A stretch of 13,069 bases of DNA, taken from contig JBHGNT010000998.1 of assembly GCA_043228905.1 (NCBI GenBank), positions 1-13,069 of the forward strand, written 5' to 3'. This DNA comes from Azolla caroliniana (lineage: Eukaryota > Plantae > Polypodiophyta). This document shows positions 1,427-13,069 of the stretch, one piece after another. The position numbers and the translations under genes were made by a program. Every line of letters starts with the position of its first letter. Positions within the stretch are counted from its first letter, which is position 1. Under the pieces are notes generated by a model. The model was given only the letters and a program-made list of their open reading frames with translations. It searched no databases and was not told the DNA's origin.

Positions 1427-2067
1427 TGTCGAGGTATTCCTCGTGGATGCGTGGAATGAGGCGGGACCTCGGGGGTCCTGTACCGAAGAGCAAGAGAGAA
1501 AGGAGAAGAGACCCACTGCGTGCGAGCGTAGATTCACAGGGACACGGCCCTTCGACACAAAGACGCGAGTGGGACAACGACACAGAGAGACACGAATGTA
1601 TGTATGTATTAACAAAGACAAACAATCAAAACACGAAGTCAGTTACAACCGAACAGGCCGGCGAACAGATGCCGTTGCCTGTTCGCAAACGCGCAGAAAG
1701 GAAGGAGAGGGTTAGAGGTGCTGCCGGAAGCACTCAGGCATTCCTCAGAGCAGCGCGAGCCTCATGAAACCTGCACAGAAAGAAGCTATGGAGTTTGCGA
1801 GCCAGAGAGAGAGAGAAGCCTTCGCCCACAAACCGACAGCACTTCGTCCTCGACTCTCCGCGATCCCTTCCTCTTCCTCGTCTCCCTCCTTTTATAGGCA
1901 AGAAGAGAGCCGTTTCCTATTAACTTCCTACCTACCGAATCTACCTACCTCGGATCTTCCATGTCCCTAATTCTCTCTTATGTACAACGTAAGGCGTACG
2001 TGCATGAAGAGCCGATTCCTATGCTCCAGCGCACCGATTCCGCTTGTGGACGGTTTTCTTCACGACA
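1427..2067 (-). repeat. 3' LTR of the gypsy element (~641 bp)
   Basis: On the minus strand it starts TGTCGTG at 2067, directly after the PPT-like tract, and ends CTCGACA at 1427 (terminal inverted repeat TGTCG/CGACA). TATAAAA at 1896-1890. The partner LTR is outside the window, so the distal end is inferred. Confidence 0.65.
1890..1896 (-). promoter_or_regulatory. Putative TATA box of the gypsy LTR
   Basis: GCCTATAAAAGGAGG on the minus strand, ~170 nt into the LTR. Confidence 0.55.
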
Positions 2068-2140: not shown

Positions 2141-4015
2141 TCATTCCTCGCCCGTCGGTTCTTCCTCGGTTTCGGATTGTTCGTCGTCCTGGTCCAGGTT
2201 AACCGGATCCGGCTCGTCGTCGTGACGCTTCTTGAACGCTTTGATCCGTTTCCCAGCTACCGGTATCGCCATTCTCGTGCCGTCGAGTTCCGCCAGATGG
2301 TACGTCCCGTTGTCGTTGGCGCTTTGTACCACGTAAGGCCTGAACCACCTTCTTGCGAACTTCCGTGTCGCTCGGTGCTGGTTGTCGAGGCTGCTGTCGT
2401 AGACTAGCACCCAGTCACCTTCCTCGATCTTCTTCGGTTGGAGCCGGTGCGTCTGGTCGAACCGGGCTTTGTTCCTCGTCCTTGCCACCCGAAGCTTTTC
2501 CGCAGCCTGCTCCACGTCCTCCGGTCTTCGCTCGAGCTGCCGTATGCGCGCCGTCAACAGTTCCTCCCGGCTCATCTCGTCTCTCCAGTCCACGGTTGCC
2601 CATGAGGAGATCGTACGTTCCATTGGCATGATCGGCTTCTGCCCAAACATGAGCTCTGCCGGCATGAATCCGGTTACCGAACTGTGCGTAGTTCGGTCCG
2701 CCCACAACGCGTAAGGCAACAGCCGCGGCCAGTTCCCGACTTGACCTCCGCATGCCCGAACTAACGCCTTGACGATCGGTCTGTGTCCGCGCTCCACCTT
2801 CCCATTCGCCTCCGGATTGTATGCAGTGGTGAGCGAGAGCTTGACTCCTAGCCGGTCGAACAACTCCTCGGCCTCTTCGGCGTCCAACTCCCCGCGATCA
2901 GCCACGATCTTCCCGACGCACCTGTACCGACATATCACGTCCTCAATCAGGAACCGACATATGGCCGTGGTCATATTGTTCTGAAGGGCTCGGCCTTCCA
3001 CCTGATTCGTCAGATCTTCCCGAGCCAGGACCAGATACCGCATCTGTCCTACGCCCATCGGCATCGTCACCAGATCTACCATCCATTTGAAGTGGATGGT
3101 CGGAGGGTACGTAGGGTGAAGCTCGTCTTGATGCTGGACCATGGAGTGCATCTGACAGCTCTCGCAAGTTGTCACGAACCGATGCACGTCCCGGTACAGT
3201 CCCGACCACCAGTACTTCCCCTTTATCTTCTCGAACGTGGCCCACGTTCCATGGTGTCCAGCCCAAGGGCTGTCGTGGTAGGCCGTCAACAGCTCCTCCT
3301 GTTCTTCCTTCATCGCCACCACCCGGAGCAGGACGCCGTTCCTCTTCTTCGGGTACTTCCATAAGTATCCATCCCGGAGAAAGAATCGGTAAGCTTTCTT
3401 CCGGATCCGGTTGGCCTCGTCCTTCGTCCATGACGCATCCGGCGTCATCATCCTCAAAAATCCACCGATCTGGAGCCACTCACCGTCGTACTTGCTCTCG
3501 TCGAAGTCGTTAAGTGCTGGAGTGCTCGTCCCATCGGTCGTCACATACGCCGCCTCGAAGAAGTCCACGCCGACTTCTTCGTCCTCCGAAACCATGCCGC
3601 CCTCGTTATCAAACCTCGCCCTCGAAAGCATGTCGGCCATGGCGTTGTCCTTTCCGGAAATGTGCCGTATTTCCGGGTCCAGGGACTTGATGTACGCTAT
3701 CCACCTGAGCATCGCCAGGTCCAGTGTCGCGCATCCGGAAACCATGCCGAGAATTGGCAGGCAATCCGTCTCGATAATCACTTCTGTCCCGATCAGGTAG
3801 TCTTTGTCAGCCTTTACTGCCGAAACGATACCCCAGAGTTCGTGTTTAACCTGGGCGTACCCTCGCTGTCGCTCACTGAGGACCTTCGCGCCGAATCGGA
3901 TCGGGAACCGAATGCCGTCCTCGTCTTCTTGGTTGACGACCCATCCGATCCCGGTCGGACTCGTATCCACCGTTATGTATACCGGGGTACCCTTCTCGTA
4001 GACAGCCTTCCGGAG
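2141..4015 (-). pseudogene. pol: Gypsy pol, RNase H + integrase part
   Basis: RNase H: VDTSPTGIG, ELWGI, IETDCLP, HISGKDNAMADMLSR. Integrase: HDSPWAGH...CESC (HHCC), WMVDLV / VADRGE / GKVERGH (DDE), GDWVLVY..RWF(R)PYVV (GPY/F-like). The frame continues upstream of ORF 2141..3970 as LRKAVYEKGTPVYITVD. Confidence 0.93.
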
Positions 4016-5618
4016 CTTCCTTCAGCTTCCGGACCGACTCCGTGTGCTCGTCTCGCCACTCGAATTTTCGTCCCTTCTTCAGCAACCCGTATAGCGGCTC
4101 CGCAACGTGGGCGTAATGCGGGATCCATATGTGGTAAAACGCACACGCCCCTAGGAACCTCCGAACTTCCGTAATCGAGCTACAATCGGTCTTCATCGCG
4201 GAGATGGCTTCTACTTTTGCCGGAGACGGCTTCCAACCATACGGTCCACACAGGTGTCCGACCACCAGGATTTCTGATTGCCCGAAGGCCGATTTCTCCC
4301 CGGAGAAGGTGAGCCTCGCATCCTCTAGCCTTTGTAGCACCTTCTCGCAGTCGTCGATGTGTGTTGCCACGAAACGCCGGCATCCGTCCAGCCCGACTGT
4401 CTCATCCTTCTCTTCCACCGGGCACCCCTTTATCGGGATGTCGTCCAGAAATGGCATGGTGATGTCCGGGATGCAATCCCTCAGTACCTTGTTCATTGCA
4501 TTCACCATGTGGGCCACCGAGTTGGTCCCTCCTTGTGGCAGGGTACACATTCGCACTAGGCCGAGGGGAGTTCGCATCGTCGTAATGTCTCTGCTCTCCA
4601 CGGCTAGCTGGAACTGGTCGTACCCCGAGTACAGATCACCGACCGAGTAAATCGACCTTCCGGCGAAGGCCTCCGCGAACTCGTCTATGGTCGGTCCGAT
4701 TCCTGCGATCCGAATGGTCATTCTGTTGACCGGCTGCAGGTCCTGAATGAAGCGCAATGTTCCGTTTTTCTTTGGTACGGTAAACCATCGGTTCGAGTAT
4801 GGCGCGCTCGACGGTTCGAGAATACCCATATCGACTTTCTGCCTCAGTGGCTCCATCAACTCCAGGATGTGAGCTCTTGGTACCGGAATCGGCTTGAGAT
4901 TCCACGGCACATGCAGTACCGTGAATATCACCATCGGCTCCACGATCGTCGGGTCTACGCACCCGATCTCTTCCGGCGAGAATGCGAAGGCCTTTCCGTG
5001 CCTTTCGAGCATCCTCCGAAACCGGTCTTCCTCCGCCGGCAGTAGGAACCCGCCCCCACCGATTTTGAGCTCCCGGAGCGTTCCGTCGGTGAAGGTGTGT
5101 CTTATGCAGACCGGATCTCGCAAACTGGGGTCCGACGCAACCCCTCTGATCCGGGACTCGCTGCCCTCTGGTAAGGGTGCCGCGACTGGCCTTACCTTCC
5201 GGTCCACAGTCTTGTACTTCGTGCTAACTTGGGCCGTCCGATCCGACCCGAGCCCCCGACTGAAGTTCGCGATGACTTCGTACATCTCTTCGGAACATAC
5301 CGGTATCGTCCGGTCTTCGTTAAGGTCTTCTCCGGCTACCTCCCTCAGCATTCCCAAGGTGTCGTCGAAGGAGACTGCCTCCACAGCTCCGCTGATTTCT
5401 TCGTCTGGGCCGAGAACTCCGCACGCTCGAAGTCGCACTTCCACCCTTGTCTTTTCTCGGCCAACGATGCCGACTATCATACACCCTCCATTGTTGGAGA
5501 AGCAAAACTTCCTACCTATCGTACAGGGTTCCTTCGGTTTCGGTTCTATCGTACAGTCGTGGGGTTTTTCCCGAGTGTCCGGGCTGTCTCGGCCCCATGC
5601 CTTGGCAGCCCTCTCTAA
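4016..5618 (-). pseudogene. pol: Gypsy pol, N-terminal linker + reverse transcriptase
   Basis: KYKTVDRKVRPV, APYSNRWFTVPKKNGTLRFIQDLQPVN, DLYSGYDQF, LPQGGTNS, PFLDD (FLDD at 4440-4451), VRRFLG. The frame is open upstream of Met 5480 through the slippery site at 5618-5624. It is out of frame with RNase H at ~4015/4016. Confidence 0.93.
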
Positions 5619-5624
5619 AAATCC
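5560..5624 (-). promoter_or_regulatory. Predicted -1 programmed ribosomal frameshift cassette (G_GAU_UUU + 6-nt spacer + H-type pseudoknot)
   Basis: The Gag-PR frame ends GAG GAT TTT TAG and pol is exactly the -1 frame and open. Downstream stems are GGGCTG/CAGCCC and CCGAG/CTCGG. Confidence 0.75.
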
Positions 5625-5776
5625 TCCCGGTTCTCGCCACCGAGGGATTCCCGGTTTCTCTCGTGGTTTGGCCGCACCGTCAGAAATTGAACCGAATGGC
5701 GCCCGTCCTGGCTTTTGACCCTCGCGTAGGCCGAACCGTTGTCCAGCACCTTGGTCTCCATTCGTGCCGCTGTGAT
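5615..5776 (-). pseudogene. C-terminal part of the gypsy Gag-protease ORF (downstream of the copia insertion)
   Basis: ITAARMETKVLDNGSAYARVKSQDGRHSVQFLTVRPNHERNRESLGGENREDF* joins in frame to ...HPIILGEPY (ending at 11109) once the copia and one TSD copy are removed. Confidence 0.9.
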
Positions 5777-5781
5777 GTACG
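5777..5781 (+). repeat. Target-site duplication GTACG (left copy)
   Basis: GTACG immediately before the TG of the 5' LTR; identical to 11109-11113. Confidence 0.97.
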
Positions 5782-6388
5782 TGTTGGGATTACGGTCCCT
5801 TCGGATGGGATGGTCGGATGTCAGAGATGAATGCCAACAAGTCCGGTTTCGGTTTCGGAACCGGATGATGAAGACCCCGGCTTCGGAGCCGGATGACGAA
5901 TGTACCCGGAGAGAGATCCGGATGCGGGGACATATCCGTGAATATGTTTGCCAAGGGCCCTTGAGGCTATAGTTGTAAATAGCCCCAAAGTCATATGTGT
6001 ATAAATATGACTTAGGGCAAACAGTTTTAATGTTGCTTCTCATTTTTTTCTGTTTTTCCACTCAAGAGGAGTGAAGAGAGAGCAGCCGTGAGAGAGATAG
6101 AGCGTGAGAGAGAAAGAGGTCGACGCCTCTGTGTATTTCCGCCGCCTGTGGCGAGGACAGCGAGCTCAAGGTCGTCGCCTTGAAGCTCGCCATTGTATAT
6201 TTCTCTGTGCATAGTTTTTTTGGTTTGGAGTCTTGTACTCCCGTGGTTTTTCCCGTACAGGGTTTTCCACGTTAAATCGTGTGTCCACTCTATTTTTCGC
6301 ATTTCCCATTTTCTGCAACAACGATTCGTGTGTTTCCTTGGTTGTGGCCGAGAGGTGAAGTTTGGAAAGTGTCGATTAATTTCCAACA
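5782..6388 (+). repeat. Copia 5' LTR (607 bp)
   Basis: TGTTGG...CCAACA; near-identical to 10503-11108. Confidence 0.98.
6000..6007 (+). promoter_or_regulatory. Putative TATA box of the copia 5' LTR
   Basis: TATAAATA ~220 nt into the LTR, following a GC-rich U3-like region. Confidence 0.7.
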
Positions 6389-6391
6389 ATT

Positions 6392-6403
6392 TGGTATCAG
6401 AGC
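6392..6403 (+). other. Primer-binding site for initiator tRNA-Met
   Basis: TGGTATCAGAGC, 3 nt after the 5' LTR; the canonical plant tRNA-iMet PBS. Confidence 0.97.
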
Positions 6404-6418
6404 GAACTGCTGCAGAAA

Positions 6419-9400
6419 ATGGAAGGCGGCGGCAGCGGGCAGCCGGGGATGATGGTGCTGAATGCGCAGAATTACGCCGACTGGAAGATCAAGATGGAGG
6501 ATCTTCTGATTGTTCAGGACCTGTACGAACCGATTGACAGGTCGGAAATACCGAAGGGAGTACTTGAGTCGGAATGGAGGCTTCTGAACCGGAAAGCCGT
6601 TGCAACCATTCGGCAATACGTAGACGTGAGCGTTCTACAACATGTGGCGAACGACACCAACGCATATGAGATGTGGCGGAAGCTGTCGGGCCTCTACGAG
6701 AGGAAGAATGCGTTGAACCGGACCTCCCTGATGAGGAAGATAGTGAACCTCAAGTACCGGGACGGCGAGAGTATGGTGGAACACGTAAGCACGTTCATGG
6801 GATTCGTGAACCAACTTGCGGCGATCAAGTTCCCGCTGGAGGATGCAATGCAAGCCATCATTCTGATGTGTACATTGCCGGAAAGTTGGGAGAACTTGGT
6901 GGTGACTCTCCGCACCTCCTGCACCGAAGATAACTTGTCCCTACAAACGGTAAAGACAAGTATTTTGAACGAAGAAGCGCGTCGGAGAGATAAAGAACCG
7001 GCCTCCGACTCGAAGGCGCTGCTTACCGAATCGGAACGGGGAAGACAATGGAACCGGAGTCCGCAAAGACGGGAGAAGTCGGGGACCCGGTCGCAGTCAA
7101 GAGGAAGACCCACATGCTTCCACTGTGGGAAGCCGGGGCACTTCCGAAAGAATTGTCGGCATTACCGAAAAGACAACGGAGCCGACGACACCGATTCGAA
7201 GAAGTCTTCGGAACGAAACGGGGCTTACCGGGGAGCCACGGACCGGAATGGTTCGGATCGGCGAGGGCAGGACCGGAAAGGAACGACGGCACTCGCGGCA
7301 AGTGAGGAAGAAATCATGCTCATCACCGAAGAAGGTGAACTAAACATTGCCGGCGATGAGACGACCTGGGTGGTCGATTCCGGAGCATCGTTCCACCTGA
7401 CCCCGGAGAGAAGATACTTCTCATCCTACACAGCCGGTGAGCATGGCTGTGTTCGGATGGGAAATGAAGGTACGTGCCGGATTGCCGGCATAGGAGACGT
7501 GTGGTTGACAATCCCGACCGGATGCAAAATGCTGCTGAAGGATGTCCGACACGTTCCGGAGGTTCGATTGAACCTGATTTCGGCCGGGAGGCTAGACGAT
7601 GAAGGCTACACAGGTAGCATCCGGAACGGCGTAATGAAGTTCAGCAAGGGGAGCCTGATAGTGGCTCGGGCCCGGAAAGTCAACACACTGTACCTGATGA
7701 ATGCCCGGTTATGTCCGGAAGAGCTGAATGTGGCAGCCGACACTGCCGGTGAGCTGTGGCACAAAAGACTGTGCCACATGAGTGAGAAGGGGATGAAGAG
7801 GCTTGCAGAAGACAACCTTATTCCAGTGAAGCATGTGCACCTGGAGAAGTGCACCGACTGCCTGGCCGGTAAGCAGAACCGAACCTCCTTCCATTCAAGG
7901 CCACCGACGAGACGTAGCGCACCATTGGAGTTGGTGCACACTGATGTGTGTCAGGTAGAAACGAAGTCACATGGCGGAGCCCAGTACTTCGTGACATTCA
8001 TTGATGATCACAGCCGGAAGCTGTGGACGGCACCGTTGAAGACAAAGGACCAAGTGTTGTCCGTCTTCAAAGAACTCCACGCGAGAGTGGAAAGGGAATC
8101 CGGCAAGAAGCTGAAAGCGATACGAGCGGATAACGGAGGGGAATACCGGGGGCAGTTCAAGGAGTACTGTCGCTCGAAGGGAATCCGGCTCGAGTTTACT
8201 GTGCCGAAGACGCCGGAACTCAACGGGCTGGCCGAGAGGATGAACCGGACCATAATGGAGAGGGTTCGGAGTATGCTGGCGCATGCGGAATTACCCAAGG
8301 GGTTTTGGGCTGAGGCGATGTCGACGGCGACATACGTGATAAACAGATCACCCTCAGTACCTTTGGAAGGAGACACGCCGCAGAGAGTGTGGACCGGTAG
8401 GGAAGTATCCTACCGGCATCTGAAGGTGTTCGGGTGTCTCGCATACGTGCATGTGGCAAAGGACCGGAGAGGAAAGCTAGATCCAAAGACCCGGCCATGC
8501 ATATTCCTCGGTTACGGCGATGACGAGTTCGGCTACCGAGTATGGGACCCGGTCGACGAGAAGATATTCCGGAGTCGTGATATCATCTTCATGGAGAACA
8601 AGACACTCGCCGACTGGGAGTCGGAGAAGAAGATGAAGAGCTCCAAGTCGACCGGTGAGGATCAACTCTACGAGGAGCAGTCCCGACCGGCAAGGGACCG
8701 GTTAGCACTCGAGGATCCGGCCGAAGACGGTGAAGAAACAGAACCGGCCGAAGAAGATGAAAATGATACCGGAACCGGCCCCGATCCCGAAATGGATTCG
8801 GATGAAGAAGAATCGGAAGAACCGGTTACCGAAGCTCCGGAACGGAGATATCCTCTAAGAGAGAGAAGGGCCCCCCGGAGATTTCCGGAACCAGAGCACG
8901 TGCTGCTAACCGACGAGGGGGAGCCGGAGAGCTTTGAAGAAGCAAAGCATGACACCCAGAGCCGCAGGTGGTTGAGTGCCATGCAGGACGAGATGGATTC
9001 CCTGCATGAGAACCACACATATGAACTTGTGGAGTTGCCGAAAGGAAAGCGGGCACTTCGAAACAAGTGGGTGTTCAAGCTGAAACCGGGAGATGCCGGA
9101 AACCCCCCGAGATACAAAGCCAGGATCGTGGTGAAGGGATTTCAGCAGAAGAAGGGCGTCGACTTCGACGAGATATTTGCCCCGGTAGTGAAGATGACCT
9201 CCATCCGGACGGTGCTGAGCATAGCGGCAAGCATGGACCTCGAGGTAGAACAGATGGACGTGAAGACGGCATTCCTTCACGGCGACCTCGAAGAAGAGAT
9301 CTACATGCAGCAACCAGAAGGATTCGAGAAGAAAGGGAAGGAGCACCTGGTATGCCGGTTGAAGAAGAGCCTTTACGGACTGAAGCAGGCTCCCCGGCAA

Positions 9401-10492
9401 TGGTACCGGAAGTTCGACTCTTTCATGACCGGCGAAGGGTACCTCAAAACGCAGTCCGACCACTGCGTGTTTGTGAAGAAGTTCGAAGGAGGAGACTTTC
9501 TAATACTCCTCCTGTACGTGGACGACATGTTGATCGTCGGACGGGACCAGGTCAAGATACGGATGCTGAAGAAGGCTCTTCACCGAACCTTCTCTATGAA
9601 GGACTTGGGTCCGGCGAGACAAATACTAGGGATGCACATCATCCGGGACCGGAGCAAGAAGCAGTTGTGGCTGTCACAGGAGAAGTACGTGACAAAGGTG
9701 CTTAAACGGTTCAACATGTCGGAAGCAAGACCGGTCGGATCGACCCTCCCCGCAAACTGCAAGCTGTCCAGCAAGCAAAGCCCCAAGACAAAGGCTGAGA
9801 AGGAGGACATGATGAAAGTGCCATATGCCTCTGCCGTCGGAAGCTTGATGTACGCAATGGTGTGTACAAGACCGGACATTGGATACGCAGTCGGAGTGGT
9901 GAGCCGGTACATGAGCAATCCCGGCAAAGAGCATTGGAACGCGGCCAAGTGGATACTCCGATACCTGAAGGGCACGGCAAACGTGTGCCTCCGATTCGGC
10001 TCCGGCAAGCCCGAACTCGACGGCTTTACCGATTCGGATATGTCGGCTGATGCAGATACCAGCCGGTCCACATCAGGGTATGTGATGACGTATGCAGGGG
10101 GAGCTGTTTCATGGCAGTCGAGGCTGCAGAAGACGGTTGCGTTGTCAACCACGGAGGCGGAGTACATGGCGGCTGTTGAAGCCGGCAAGGAAATAATATG
10201 GATGAAGGACTTCATTAGAGAGCTCGGTATCCAGCAGGAGGAGTACCGACTCTACTGCGATAGTCAGAGTGCCATCCACCTTGCGAAGAACGCGGCCTAT
10301 CACTCCCGGACGAAGCACATCCAGCGAAGATATCACTGGATCCGGGAAAGGATAGAAGACAAGGAGTTCGTGCTGACGAAGGTCCACACGGACGAGAACG
10401 GGTCGGATATGCTGACCAAGGTGCTCACACCCGACAAACTGGAAGCATGCCGGAAGAGGATCGGATTGGAGAGACATCCCATGCCGAAGTGA
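6419..10492 (+). CDS. gag-pol: Copia Gag-Pol polyprotein (Gag, CCHC knuckle, protease, integrase, reverse transcriptase, RNase H), 1357 aa
   Basis: CFHCGKPGHFRKNC (7115-7156); WVVDSGAS; LWHKRLCH...CTDC; VHTDVC / IRADNGGEY / NGLAERMNRT; YKARIVVKG, QMDVKTAF, LYGLKQAPRQW, YVDDM; FTDSD, TEAEY, YCDSQSAI, SDMLTK. No stops or frameshifts. Confidence 0.98.
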   Translation: MEGGGSGQPGMMVLNAQNYADWKIKMEDLLIVQDLYEPIDRSEIPKGVLESEWRLLNRKAVATIRQYVDVSVLQHVANDTNAYEMWRKLSGLYERKNALNRTSLMRKIVNLKYRDGESMVEHVSTFMGFVNQLAAIKFPLEDAMQAIILMCTLPESWENLVVTLRTSCTEDNLSLQTVKTSILNEEARRRDKEPASDSKALLTESERGRQWNRSPQRREKSGTRSQSRGRPTCFHCGKPGHFRKNCRHYRKDNGADDTDSKKSSERNGAYRGATDRNGSDRRGQDRKGTTALAASEEEIMLITEEGELNIAGDETTWVVDSGASFHLTPERRYFSSYTAGEHGCVRMGNEGTCRIAGIGDVWLTIPTGCKMLLKDVRHVPEVRLNLISAGRLDDEGYTGSIRNGVMKFSKGSLIVARARKVNTLYLMNARLCPEELNVAADTAGELWHKRLCHMSEKGMKRLAEDNLIPVKHVHLEKCTDCLAGKQNRTSFHSRPPTRRSAPLELVHTDVCQVETKSHGGAQYFVTFIDDHSRKLWTAPLKTKDQVLSVFKELHARVERESGKKLKAIRADNGGEYRGQFKEYCRSKGIRLEFTVPKTPELNGLAERMNRTIMERVRSMLAHAELPKGFWAEAMSTATYVINRSPSVPLEGDTPQRVWTGREVSYRHLKVFGCLAYVHVAKDRRGKLDPKTRPCIFLGYGDDEFGYRVWDPVDEKIFRSRDIIFMENKTLADWESEKKMKSSKSTGEDQLYEEQSRPARDRLALEDPAEDGEETEPAEEDENDTGTGPDPEMDSDEEESEEPVTEAPERRYPLRERRAPRRFPEPEHVLLTDEGEPESFEEAKHDTQSRRWLSAMQDEMDSLHENHTYELVELPKGKRALRNKWVFKLKPGDAGNPPRYKARIVVKGFQQKKGVDFDEIFAPVVKMTSIRTVLSIAASMDLEVEQMDVKTAFLHGDLEEEIYMQQPEGFEKKGKEHLVCRLKKSLYGLKQAPRQWYRKFDSFMTGEGYLKTQSDHCVFVKKFEGGDFLILLLYVDDMLIVGRDQVKIRMLKKALHRTFSMKDLGPARQILGMHIIRDRSKKQLWLSQEKYVTKVLKRFNMSEARPVGSTLPANCKLSSKQSPKTKAEKEDMMKVPYASAVGSLMYAMVCTRPDIGYAVGVVSRYMSNPGKEHWNAAKWILRYLKGTANVCLRFGSGKPELDGFTDSDMSADADTSRSTSGYVMTYAGGAVSWQSRLQKTVALSTTEAEYMAAVEAGKEIIWMKDFIRELGIQQEEYRLYCDSQSAIHLAKNAAYHSRTKHIQRRYHWIRERIEDKEFVLTKVHTDENGSDMLTKVLTPDKLEACRKRIGLERHPMPK

Positions 10493-10500
10493 AGGGGGAG
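10491..10500 (+). other. Copia polypurine tract
   Basis: GAAGGGGGAG, 2 nt before the 3' LTR; overlaps the TGA stop (10490-10492). Confidence 0.95.
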
Positions 10501-10502
10501 TT

Positions 10503-11108
10503 TGTTGGGATTACGGTCCCTTCGGATGGGATGGTCGGATGTCAGAGATGAATGCCGACAAGTTCGGTTTCGGTTTCGGAACCGGATGATGAAGACCCCG
10601 GCTTCGGAGCCGGATGACGAATGTACCCGGAGAGAGATCCGGATGCGGGGACATATCCGTGAATATGTTTGCCAAGGGCCCTTGAGGCTATAGTTGTAAA
10701 TAGCCCCAAGTCATATGTGTATAAATATGACTTAGGGCAAACAGTTTTAATGTTGCTTCTCATTTTTTTCTGTTTTTCCACTCAAGAGGAGTGAAGAGAG
10801 AGCAGCCGTGAGAGAGATAGAGCGTGAGAGAGAAAGAGGTCGACGCCTCTGTGTATTTCCGCCGCCTGTGGCGAGGACAGCGAGCTCAAGGTCGTCGCCT
10901 TGAAGCTCGCCATTGTATATTTCTCTGTGCATAGTTTTTTTGGTTTGGAGTCTTGTACTCCCGTGGTTTTTCCCGTACAGGGTTTTCCACGTTAAATCGT
11001 GTGTCCACTCTATTTTTCGCATTTCCCATTTTCTGCAACAACGATTCGTGTGTTTCCTTGGTTGTGGCCGAGAGGTGAAGTTTGGAAAGTGTCGATTAAT
11101 TTCCAGCA
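10503..11108 (+). repeat. Copia 3' LTR (606 bp)
   Basis: TGTTGG...CCAGCA. By my manual alignment it differs from the 5' LTR by 3 substitutions and one 1-bp indel. Confidence 0.98.
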
Positions 11109-11113
11109 GTACG
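11109..11113 (+). repeat. Target-site duplication GTACG (right copy)
   Basis: GTACG directly after the terminal CA; matches 5777-5781. Confidence 0.97.
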
Positions 11114-11732
11114 GTTCCCCTAATATGATCGGATGCGAGGACGTCTCCTGCACGAAGAAGTGCTGGTCAATCTCGACGTCGCCGATCGTGACACGCACGT
11201 TCGGGCAGGCCCTGTGCAGTTCCTCGGTGGCGCGTGTCGCCGCCCGGATCTTCCACCTGTGCTTGGTGTTGATCGGCCACTTTCCCTTCTTATAGAAGTC
11301 CATGGACATCAGGTTTATTTCCGAACCGTGGTCCACCAGTGCCACCACCGGTTCCTGAACATCTCCGATCTTTACCGGGGTCTCCGTGGTCGCTCGGGCC
11401 CAGTGTGGCCTCGAATAGTAGCTCTCCGCCCACTCATCTGCCAGCGCCGAGTCGTCGATGTGCGTGGTTTGCACCTCCACCGGTCTCTCCGGTTCTGTCT
11501 TCGTCGACAGCCTCTTCCGTTTCACCAAGTCCACAATGGAGTCGTGGAACTCCTTCTTGGCGATCCCTAGCACCTCTCGTAATGACAGCTCCACTTTGTT
11601 GTCGAGGATCCGTTCTTCTAGGACCTTTTGTAGGTCCGTGGTCCTTTCTATTTCCGTCCCCAGTCGGTATCTGCCCTTCCTGGGGTTATCTTGCGAGCTG
11701 GACCCACCGGCATCGTTCCGTCGTTGCCCGAA
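11109..11732 (-). pseudogene. Gypsy post-Gag linker + aspartic protease (N-terminal part)
   Basis: Same frame as gag and open from the TGA at 11733-11735 to the copia junction: ...ERILDNKVELSLREVLGIAKKEF...VVALVDHGSEINLMS...HFFVQETSSHPIILGEPY. Retropepsin fold motifs D-x-G-S and ILG. Confidence 0.88.
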
Positions 11733-13046
11733 TCAGGTCTCGTACCGTTGTGAGGGCTCGGCCGCTCCGGCTTTCCCCACTTGTTTGTCTTCTACCAGAG
11801 CCTCGTAGTTCCGGCAGGCGGCTTCTACGAAGCCCGTCTTCTCCTCGACCGGATCGCTCCACCCGGTTATTTCCCGGACCCGTCTCTCAGCGCGGTCCGT
11901 TTCATCTTTCCTTAGACGTGCGCCGGCAAGACCTTCCAGCATTGCCGACCAGAATCCGTCTTTGCCCTCCTTTCGGGCCTCGTTGCCCCCGACCCGAATG
12001 CCGGCCGACGCCGAGTAGTGGATGGCCTCTACGTGTCGGGCCGCTGCCTCTTCCATCAGTCTCTTCATACCTCCTCGTCCGTCGTTTCGGTTTAGGGCCC
12101 TTCTGGTGTCGCCGGCGTGCACCCGGCCTTCCCACAGGTACACCACCCGGTTCCTCAACGCTTCTGTGAAATCACCGCAGTCCTTCCGGATGTGGCCGAG
12201 CTCGTCGCACCACATGCACCTGTTCCCTGCTGTCGGCCGTCGGTCACGAGCCGGTTCGCCGCCTTCCCTTCGAGTCTGGGCGATCTGGAGATCCTTTATC
12301 GCCCGCGTCAACTCCTCCAGCGCTGCTCCTCCGGACGAGCCACTGACCATGCCGGTCGAAGCTGGACCGGTTTCGAGCCATTCCCGGGTTTCTTCCCTTC
12401 GCCCTTGCGGTGCCGGTTCAAGCCTCCTTGTTGTGACAGAGCCCGCACCGGCCGCCCCGTTATCAGCCCATTCTCGCCGTTTGTCGAAACGGCCACAGAC
12501 TCTCTTAACCGCAGCCCAGTCGGTCGTCAGCCCGTCTTCGGTTTCCAGCAAGGAGCCGACTTGATCCTGGTCCCGCTCGTCCACCGACTTGACGAACAGT
12601 AGGACCCGGCTCGTATCCAGAACGGTTCTGTCAAGCGCCGAAAGGCGCGCAAAGCGTTCTTCGAACTCCCTGAGGAGTGCCGACGCGTTTCTCCCCTTTC
12701 CGGGGGATTCCACCCACTCTATGAATTCCCGTTTCGAAAGCCGGAGCGCGTCGTCCAGCCCGTATTTTTCTAGTAGTCGACCTTCGAACTCCTCCCAGGT
12801 ACGGCTCTCCGCCCGCACCTCGAGCACCTCCGCATGGATGCTCGGCATCGCCACTCGACGGAACCGGGCAAGACGCCTCTCTTCCGGAATGTCCCGCATC
12901 AGCATTTCTGCCCCGTAGGACGCCAAATACTTAGTGGCATCCCTTCCGCTAAATCGGCCGATCGTACCGACGACCGCCTCAATGGCTCTGTCGAGGGCGC
13001 CGGAGCCCTCGCGTGCGCTCAATATCCGATCCACGGCCGAAGCCAT
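11733..13046 (-). pseudogene. gag: Gypsy Gag with CCHC zinc knuckle; ends at an internal TGA that is probably a decayed CGA
   Basis: FSGRDATKYL...TWEEFEGRLLEKY capsid-like motifs; CMWCDELGHIRKDC at 12177-12218; upstream of and in frame with the protease. Confidence 0.88.
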
Positions 13047-13069
13047 GGCCTCCGCAAGATCCGACCCTT

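Follow-up and report, generated by a model that had tools for sequence, protein, structure and literature searches.

A probable programmed −1 frameshift signal with a predicted pseudoknot between protease and reverse transcriptase in Phygy-like plant retrotransposons

The window, a 13,069-nucleotide stretch of Azolla caroliniana DNA, contains a broken minus-strand Ty3/gypsy retrotransposon of Phygy-like type with a young copia element sitting in its protease region (Table 1). At the junction of its gag-protease and RT-RNase H-integrase reading frames there is a G_GAU_UUU heptamer followed by a predicted H-type pseudoknot, and comparison with related sequences makes it very likely that the two form a programmed −1 frameshift signal used throughout the lineage. 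The canonical features of such signals are present: a heptamer of accepted type (with the G_GA exception), an open −1 frame and, 5–9 nt downstream, a predicted stimulatory structure whose stem 1 covaries. ORF1 ends GAG GAT TTT TAG (...REDF*) and pol lies in the −1 frame, open through the site, as a sequence-only reading of this DNA had described; we checked its positions for the heptamer, stop, stems and bulge, and each is exact. With tRNA-Asp and tRNA-Phe seated on GAU and UUU, the ribosome would encounter a pseudoknot 5–6 nt downstream, the predicted geometry of which is a stem 1 of about 8–12 bp, a stem 2 of 4–8 bp and a long loop 3. A minority of ribosomes would slip in tandem from GAU-UUU to GGA-UUU to give a Gag-PR-RT-RH-IN product joined as ...D-F-L-E-R..., and the majority would terminate at the adjacent stop. 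This stop could promote slippage in its own right, as at the umbravirus PEMV2 site. The outcome would be Gag-protease in excess over RT and integrase.

Table 1. Features of the window, in window coordinates
Feature	Position	Strand	Basis or remark
Slippery heptamer G_GAT_TTT, ORF1 frame	5618..5624	-	GGATTTT 5624-5618
ORF1 stop TAG, abutting heptamer	5615..5617	-	Read from sequence
Spacer, 6 nt	5612..5617	-	Distance to conserved first stem 1 pair
Stem 1, 5' arm GGGCTGCC	5604..5611	-	Alignment columns 16-23, covariation
Stem 1, 3' arm GACAGCCC	5581..5588	-	A5587 opposite C5605 mismatched in window's copy
Conserved stem 2, 5' arm TGGGG	5593..5597	-	Within stem 1 loop
Conserved stem 2, 3' arm CCCCA	5560..5564	-	C-rich segment downstream of stem 1
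Stem 2 of the sequence-only reading, CCGAG (5592-5588)/CTCGG (5575-5571)	5571..5592	-	Optional pairing; complete in window only, among 45 junctions
ORF1 3' end (protease end and tail)	5615..5781	-	3' of copia insertion; matches P0121 C-terminus
ORF1 5' part (gag-like region, DUF4100, protease start)	11109..13069	-	Exits window; frame break near 11733
pol N-terminal spacer and RT, −1 frame	3873..5624	-	RVT_1 match; open frame spans 3873-5789
pol RNase H and integrase	2141..4021	-	ORF and Pfam matches
Gypsy 3' LTR (TGTCG...CGACA)	1427..2067	-	Purine tract before, TCGG (NCGN) after
Nested Ty1/copia	5782..11108	+	LTRs 5782-6388 and 10503-11108, TSD GTACG, single 1370-codon ORF

The nested copia (5.3 kb, inserted about 160 nt upstream of the slippery site) has LTRs that are three substitutions and one gap apart (~99.3% identical); it is very young, seemingly intact, and interrupts the gypsy protease. 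The gypsy copy has a second frame break near 3873–4021, within pol. Its pol gave no Pfam match to a chromodomain or to a second (archaeal-type) RNase H, and the 1427 boundary of its 3' LTR was set by comparison with relatives. Because the copy is interrupted by copia and carries further frame breaks, the cassette here is probably a relic. The earlier proposal of a functional recoding cassette in a plant retrotransposon holds for the −1 cassette as a conserved entity, which the relatives strongly support, but this particular copy is probably unproductive. At 3–1082 on the minus strand there are open frames with degenerate repeats at about 135–160 nt spacing that encode QRETQE-like peptide repeats; these gave no Pfam match, and a single stop interrupts the frame near 543.

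The window has two further instances of GGATTTY with a stop triplet behind it, so that the heptamer-stop motif alone is weak evidence and it is conservation that carries the case. We examined the best 80 of 176 confirmed metagenome loci, seven of which stop short of the junction, leaving 73 that were scored. The heptamer is at the end of ORF1 in 66 of these, with pol in the −1 frame in 59, in −2 (or +1) in two, and unscorable in five; L007 and L016 were left out of the tallies, the heptamer match of the first being spurious and the apparent +1 of the second an upstream frame break. A covariance model finds the cassette behind upstream damage in both of these as well as in L021 and L075, while L069 and L076 end at the junction itself and L080 before it. 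The sequence-only reading had pointed out that a single continuous frame in intact members would turn the T run into an indel; an in-frame ORF1-pol fusion is present in none of the 73 scored loci. Pol is frequently open for more than 1,100 codons from the site. Collapsing identical cases, with the window counted in, gives 45 distinct junctions whose heptamers are GGATTTT (38), GGATTTC (2), GGGTTTT (2), GGTTTTT (2) and GGTTTTC (1), and whose ORF1 stops are TAG (20), TAA (17) or TGA (8), located 0, 3 or 15 nt 3' of the heptamer. Five loci (L044, L072, L074, L077 and L079) have the stop 15 nt past the heptamer, inside stem 1, which indicates that an adjacent stop is dispensable in some sub-lineages. 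The window's own copy, with its frame breaks and nested copia, is dead, as would be expected if the shift were a chance indel and the stems chance complementarity, but the same offset, heptamer and structure recur in the 45 distinct junctions, down to an ORF1 protease identity of about 58%, and the probability of this explanation is negligible.

Host sampling is narrow, since 76 of the 80 loci belong to one accession series. A prokaryote genome set contributed two related contigs, in a cyanobacterial MAG (L081) and a Streptomyces draft (L082), both retrotransposon contigs that are probably eukaryotic contamination; the junction is covered only in L081. This distant member lies outside the alignment and scores weakly with the covariance model (E 0.65), and its heptamer, −1 pol and predicted pseudoknot are all present. 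No relatives were found among viral contigs.

Protein homologues show the same division. Of 120 ORF1 homologues, half (60) terminate in [DGN]F; in 23 more, [DG]F lies five residues ahead of the C-terminus, and two finish in VF-x. The other 35 have other endings, are incomplete, are joined gene models or lack the anchor motif. Endings of the [DGN]F type are also found in proteins of Physcomitrium, Riccia and Adiantum. Many of the 120 RT homologues listed are separate ORFs of about 1,020–1,230 residues that lack a protease and, among the matches listed, start 14–144 residues ahead of a conserved KYK motif; the long Riccia and Adiantum RT entries are gene models that join pieces. Three distant relatives with 41–42% RT identity (P0109–P0111) have protease and RT in one ORF, and the split between the two is thus not universal in the wider clade. 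One of them, P0109, has a PHD finger C-terminal to its integrase. Remoter pol ORFs (P0112–P0120, 35–40% identity) mostly start just before a KYK-like motif and have no protease, so the elements of other hosts may likewise divide protease from RT.

A base outside the two slipping codons is informative about mechanism. The heptamer tallies used a pattern with an obligatory leading G, so the conservation of that G rests instead on loci whose ORF1 ends in DF-stop, taken without a heptamer filter; G precedes GAT in 55 of 55, within 13 forms of the preceding codon that include four-fold degenerate ones, against a background G3 of 0.30. This conserved G points to tRNA re-pairing. It also bears on the proposal that translation of pol begins anew past the ORF1 stop, through reinitiation or internal initiation, or that transcriptional or reverse transcriptase slippage on the T run joins the frames. 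T runs are prone to slippage, the site has one, and L057 has an ATG in the pol frame just upstream of the site; against these points, the position of the first ATG in the pol frame varies between codon 3 and codon 111, so pol has no conserved start of its own and reinitiation is disfavoured, and pol is normally packaged through fusion to Gag. No indel across the site, T run included, was above the listing threshold in one RNA run or in three DNA runs, which carry three different organism labels. We consider initiation or slippage very unlikely. Position 5589, in the CCGAG arm of the stem 2 of the sequence-only reading, departs from the window's base in about 13%, 20% and 100% of contig depth in the three DNA runs.

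Splicing that removes the stop, with pol made from the spliced RNA as reported for Ogre, is less probable still. The window's TTTTTAG does resemble a 3' acceptor, and Ogre and Retand likewise separate GAG-PROT from RT-RH-INT in the accessible text of a survey of plant elements (PMC6317226). Nevertheless, six of the 45 junctions lack an AG near the site, and among the others it occurs in every one of the three phases; with neither the position nor the phase of an AG conserved, splicing is disfavoured. Nor would splicing account for the stems, the constant −1 frame or the G ahead of GAT. The 35 RNA reads that cover the site, mostly from relatives less than 90% alike and in both strands, contain no splice joint, a weak argument in the same direction.

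The strongest structural signal is in stem 1. The MAFFT alignment of the 45 junctions is almost ungapped, and 349 of its 360 stem 1 cells are paired. The pairing GGGCTG (5611-5606)/CAGCCC (5586-5581) put forward from the sequence belongs to this stem, but the conserved stem is longer, comprising eight positions (5611-5604/5588-5581), and the 6-nt spacer is also the conserved distance to its first pair in the −1 members. Consequently the A at 5587, previously described as wedged between the stems, is really part of a C.A mismatch (5605/5587) within stem 1, and in 42 of 45 rows the base in its column takes part in a stem 1 pair. Double changes are seen in eight of ten stem 1 pairs, with a score reached by none of 500 shuffles, and slid controls pair at about 40% compared with 82%. 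On a nucleotide FastTree of 43 rows built from upstream DNA (the window and L022 omitted), 39 of 47 stem 1 changes keep pairing and eight are double, whereas 5000 partner derangements give a maximum of two double changes. Stem covariation across the family, one of the checks proposed for the sequence-only reading, is therefore seen for stem 1, with eight tree-independent double changes against at most two in controls.

The second stem differs from the one first drawn. For CCGAG/CTCGG no more than 32% of cells are paired, and at that register none of the 45 rows has the fifth pair; the window alone can form all five pairs. What had been listed as a possible extension across the GAAAAA stretch (which is indeed present at 5570-5565), TGGGG (5597-5593) with CCCCA (5564-5560), is the conserved stem 2 itself. 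We considered and rejected a kinked pseudoknot of the MMTV type with a wedge A, in view of the unconserved stem 2 it requires and the pairing of the A column in stem 1. A stem 2 of at least 4 bp is available in all 45 junctions, and its arms swap in concert (GTGGGG/CCCCAC, CAAGG/CCTTG, GCGAGA/TCTCGC, TGAGGGT/ACCCTCG), with the 3' arm shifting position relative to the pol codons; in the MAFFT alignment stem 2 falls in two registers, 76% paired at most, and the tree comparison above covers stem 1.

An H-type pseudoknot is possible in 45 of the 45 distinct junctions, starting 4–8 nt past the heptamer, as scored by a simple enumerator rather than by full free energy. Dinucleotide shuffles of the window's 85 downstream nt reach its score in one case of 300 and give no pseudoknot at all in 253, and over the 45 junctions 3 of 540 shuffles reach the score of their own junction. 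Random nearby positions reach the window's score in 11 of 436 cases, and a score attained by 44 of the 45 junctions is matched at 17 of 436 background positions. Rfam gave no frameshift-family match for the cassette; the single, unrelated match had an E of 1.4.

It is possible to account for part of these data with less structure, if the −1 shift were stimulated by the stem 1 hairpin and the adjacent stop, with stem 2 dispensable or alternating with, for example, CCGAG/CTCGG. Stem 1 is 85.6–97% paired compared with 73–76% for stem 2 in any single register, nested folding of the window site is unremarkable (z −0.2 to −1.8) and finds stem 1 by itself, and the CCG/CGG core of the alternative pairing is possible in nine close relatives. 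The universal availability of stem 2, its concerted swaps and the rarity of pseudoknots among the window shuffles argue the other way, and we think a hairpin-only stimulator unlikely, though less so than the alternatives above. In the nearest subfamily, the window (5584-5570, minus strand) and L001–L011, a CGG retained in loop 3 has two potential partners, the loop CCG and the end of stem 1; a competing hairpin, and with it a conformational switch, is possible on modelled pairing, and in the window's copy this hairpin would use the stem 1 3' arm. The stems overlap pol-frame coding and some residues there (R, G, S, P) are fairly conserved, so protein constraint could explain part of the conservation. 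A local pseudoknot would account for the conservation that is observed.

The boundary that the shift would cross separates protease from RT, not gag from pol, with ORF1 consisting of a gag-like region plus protease and pol of RT-RH-INT. The C-terminal domain of ORF1 gives aspartyl-protease Pfam matches, below the curated cut-off, in 18 of 27 members among the relatives, and that of L002 has a predicted retropepsin fold (pLDDT 79) with a Foldseek match to the Ddi1 RVP at E 8e-6. On these predictions the domain is a protease of retropepsin fold, which in the window's copy is split by copia. The protease active site, at about 11320–11350 (minus strand) in the window, reads D-H-G-S across the group and D-Q-G in two loci, compared with the D-T/S-G of other such enzymes.

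Two loci depart from the −1 arrangement. L050 (2834-2908) and L057 (2496-2570) have AG_GTT_TTT, a 5-nt spacer and the same predicted pseudoknot; their junction reads CAG GTT TTT xAC TAG, and stem 1 is one base nearer the heptamer. Pol is in the −2 (= +1) frame, with 1166 codons in L050 and 1113 in L057 to the next stop, while the −1 frame closes at once or after four codons. The stem codons in the −2 frame keep the family register (R-T-I/V). Among the cluster members listed, six ORF1 proteins ending in QVFD and six pol proteins from TTG-ACT-AGG agree with this, and may derive from the same samples; three listed read pieces of L057, from two of four runs and none long enough to fix the frame, span the heptamer and stem 1 ungapped. 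These sequences suggest that pol is intact in both loci and is likely reached when ribosomes slip by −2 on AG_GUU_UUU, where the spacer is 5 rather than 6 nt, although an extra outer pair, which would make the spacer 5 nt or less, is possible in 16 of the 43 other junctions. A quick tree joins the two as sisters (SH-aLRT 100), and over 1 kb they share about 74% identity; as one clade they represent one event. A +1 route is a possible alternative, as is initiation at the nearby ATG in L057, which is in the pol frame just upstream of the site; P0017 begins MIRFF. On balance we lean towards a lineage with a pseudoknot-driven shift after the protease in which one sub-lineage may have switched from −1 to −2 through a heptamer change and the loss of a spacer base, with the predicted pseudoknot retained.

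There is a viral parallel for a −2 shift at such a site. According to the accessible text of the sources, PRRSV makes a −2 shift on GG_GUU_UUU with an immediate stop in −1 (PMC4937337), and shorter spacers favour −2 slippage (PMC3458567). L050 and L057 share with the −2/−1 signal of arterivirus (PRRSV) nsp2TF the type of site, the frame of the −2 product and the early −1 closure. In the parts of these sources available, the PRRSV stimulators are nsp1beta and PCBP, acting on a C-rich motif at a distance of about 10 nt, and RNA structure plays no part; the two plant loci differ in their predicted pseudoknot, which begins after 5 nt, and in having A instead of G at −2.

By its one-sided NCGN flank, PBS type and absence of extra domains, the element is a probable fit to Phygy, the REXdb lineage of non-chromovirus Ty3/gypsy elements. 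Its 3' flank is TCGG (NCGN-type) and its 5' flank lies outside the window. Behind the LTR end 11 relatives have TGGTGAACCC.ACGTG as PBS, which would be of the tRNA-Trp type, as in Phygy. Physcomitrium, where Phygy also has homologues, has gene models that match ORF1 at 43–56%, and further homologues occur in Riccia and Adiantum. In L011 (7440-7530) there is a second LTR with the PBS again after it, either because LTR and internal region are repeated in tandem (LTR-internal-LTR-internal) or through a wrap made by the assembly.

The accessible text of the Neumann 2019 survey (PMC6317226) gives the coding organisation of Phygy as ND, confines GAG-PROT splits to Ogre and Retand, and confines GAG:PROT overlaps to Tcn1, Selgy and SIRE. 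All five are likewise two-ORF plant LTR retrotransposons, but Ogre and Retand use a stop or spacer (Ogre with an intron) where the Phygy-like element has a −1 overlap, and in Tcn1, Selgy and SIRE the overlap is between gag and protease whereas here the split follows the protease. A review by Atkins (2016), as far as its text is accessible, reports the plant retrotransposon cases of a 2003 survey as having pol in +1 (PMC5009743). The same text documents G_GAU_UUU as an umbravirus/dianthovirus −1 site with a nearby 0-frame stop, in agreement with the sequence-only reading. PEMV RNA2 and RCNMV (Tombusviridae) have both elements in common with the plant cassette; as described there, the Tombusviridae stimulator is a stem-loop paired to a distant 3' element, in contrast to the local, compact H-type structure predicted here, and no sequence kinship is implied.

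MMTV and SRV-1 gag-pro, HTLV-1 pro-pol and the retrotransposon-derived PEG10 and PNMA3 offer architectural parallels, each with a heptamer, a 5–6 nt spacer and an H-type pseudoknot; the retroviral signals likewise set the ratio of enzyme to structural protein, and the position after the protease recalls pro-pol sites. The plant element differs in its single shift after the protease, its different heptamer, a stem 1 of 8–12 bp, a long loop 3 and the lack of a conserved wedge A. We found no published description of the cassette in the literature, of which subscription papers, Repbase/GyDB notes and the REXdb FASTA supplement were mostly beyond reach, and the accessible parts of PMC12786077, PMC7466625, PMC5580714 and PMC2864245 describe no Phygy-like frameshift signal. 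What appears to be new is the pair of candidate −2 sister families; the −1 mechanism itself is of a known kind in a new lineage.

The cassette spans retrotransposons of moss, liverwort and fern, and fills the gap left for Phygy coding organisation in the accessible text of the survey (PMC6317226). Split ORFs connected by a frameshift would explain the joined or clipped gene models in Physcomitrium, Riccia and Adiantum. In this lineage a single compact, predicted frameshift pseudoknot exists in dozens of naturally occurring versions, which should work on plant ribosomes. With the −2 pair, the way in which spacer length bears on the direction of the shift becomes testable on natural, selected sequences; if the reading of these two loci is correct, they would represent an essential, RNA-structure-stimulated −2 frameshift that converges on the site of arteriviruses and puts the spacer-tension model to a natural test.
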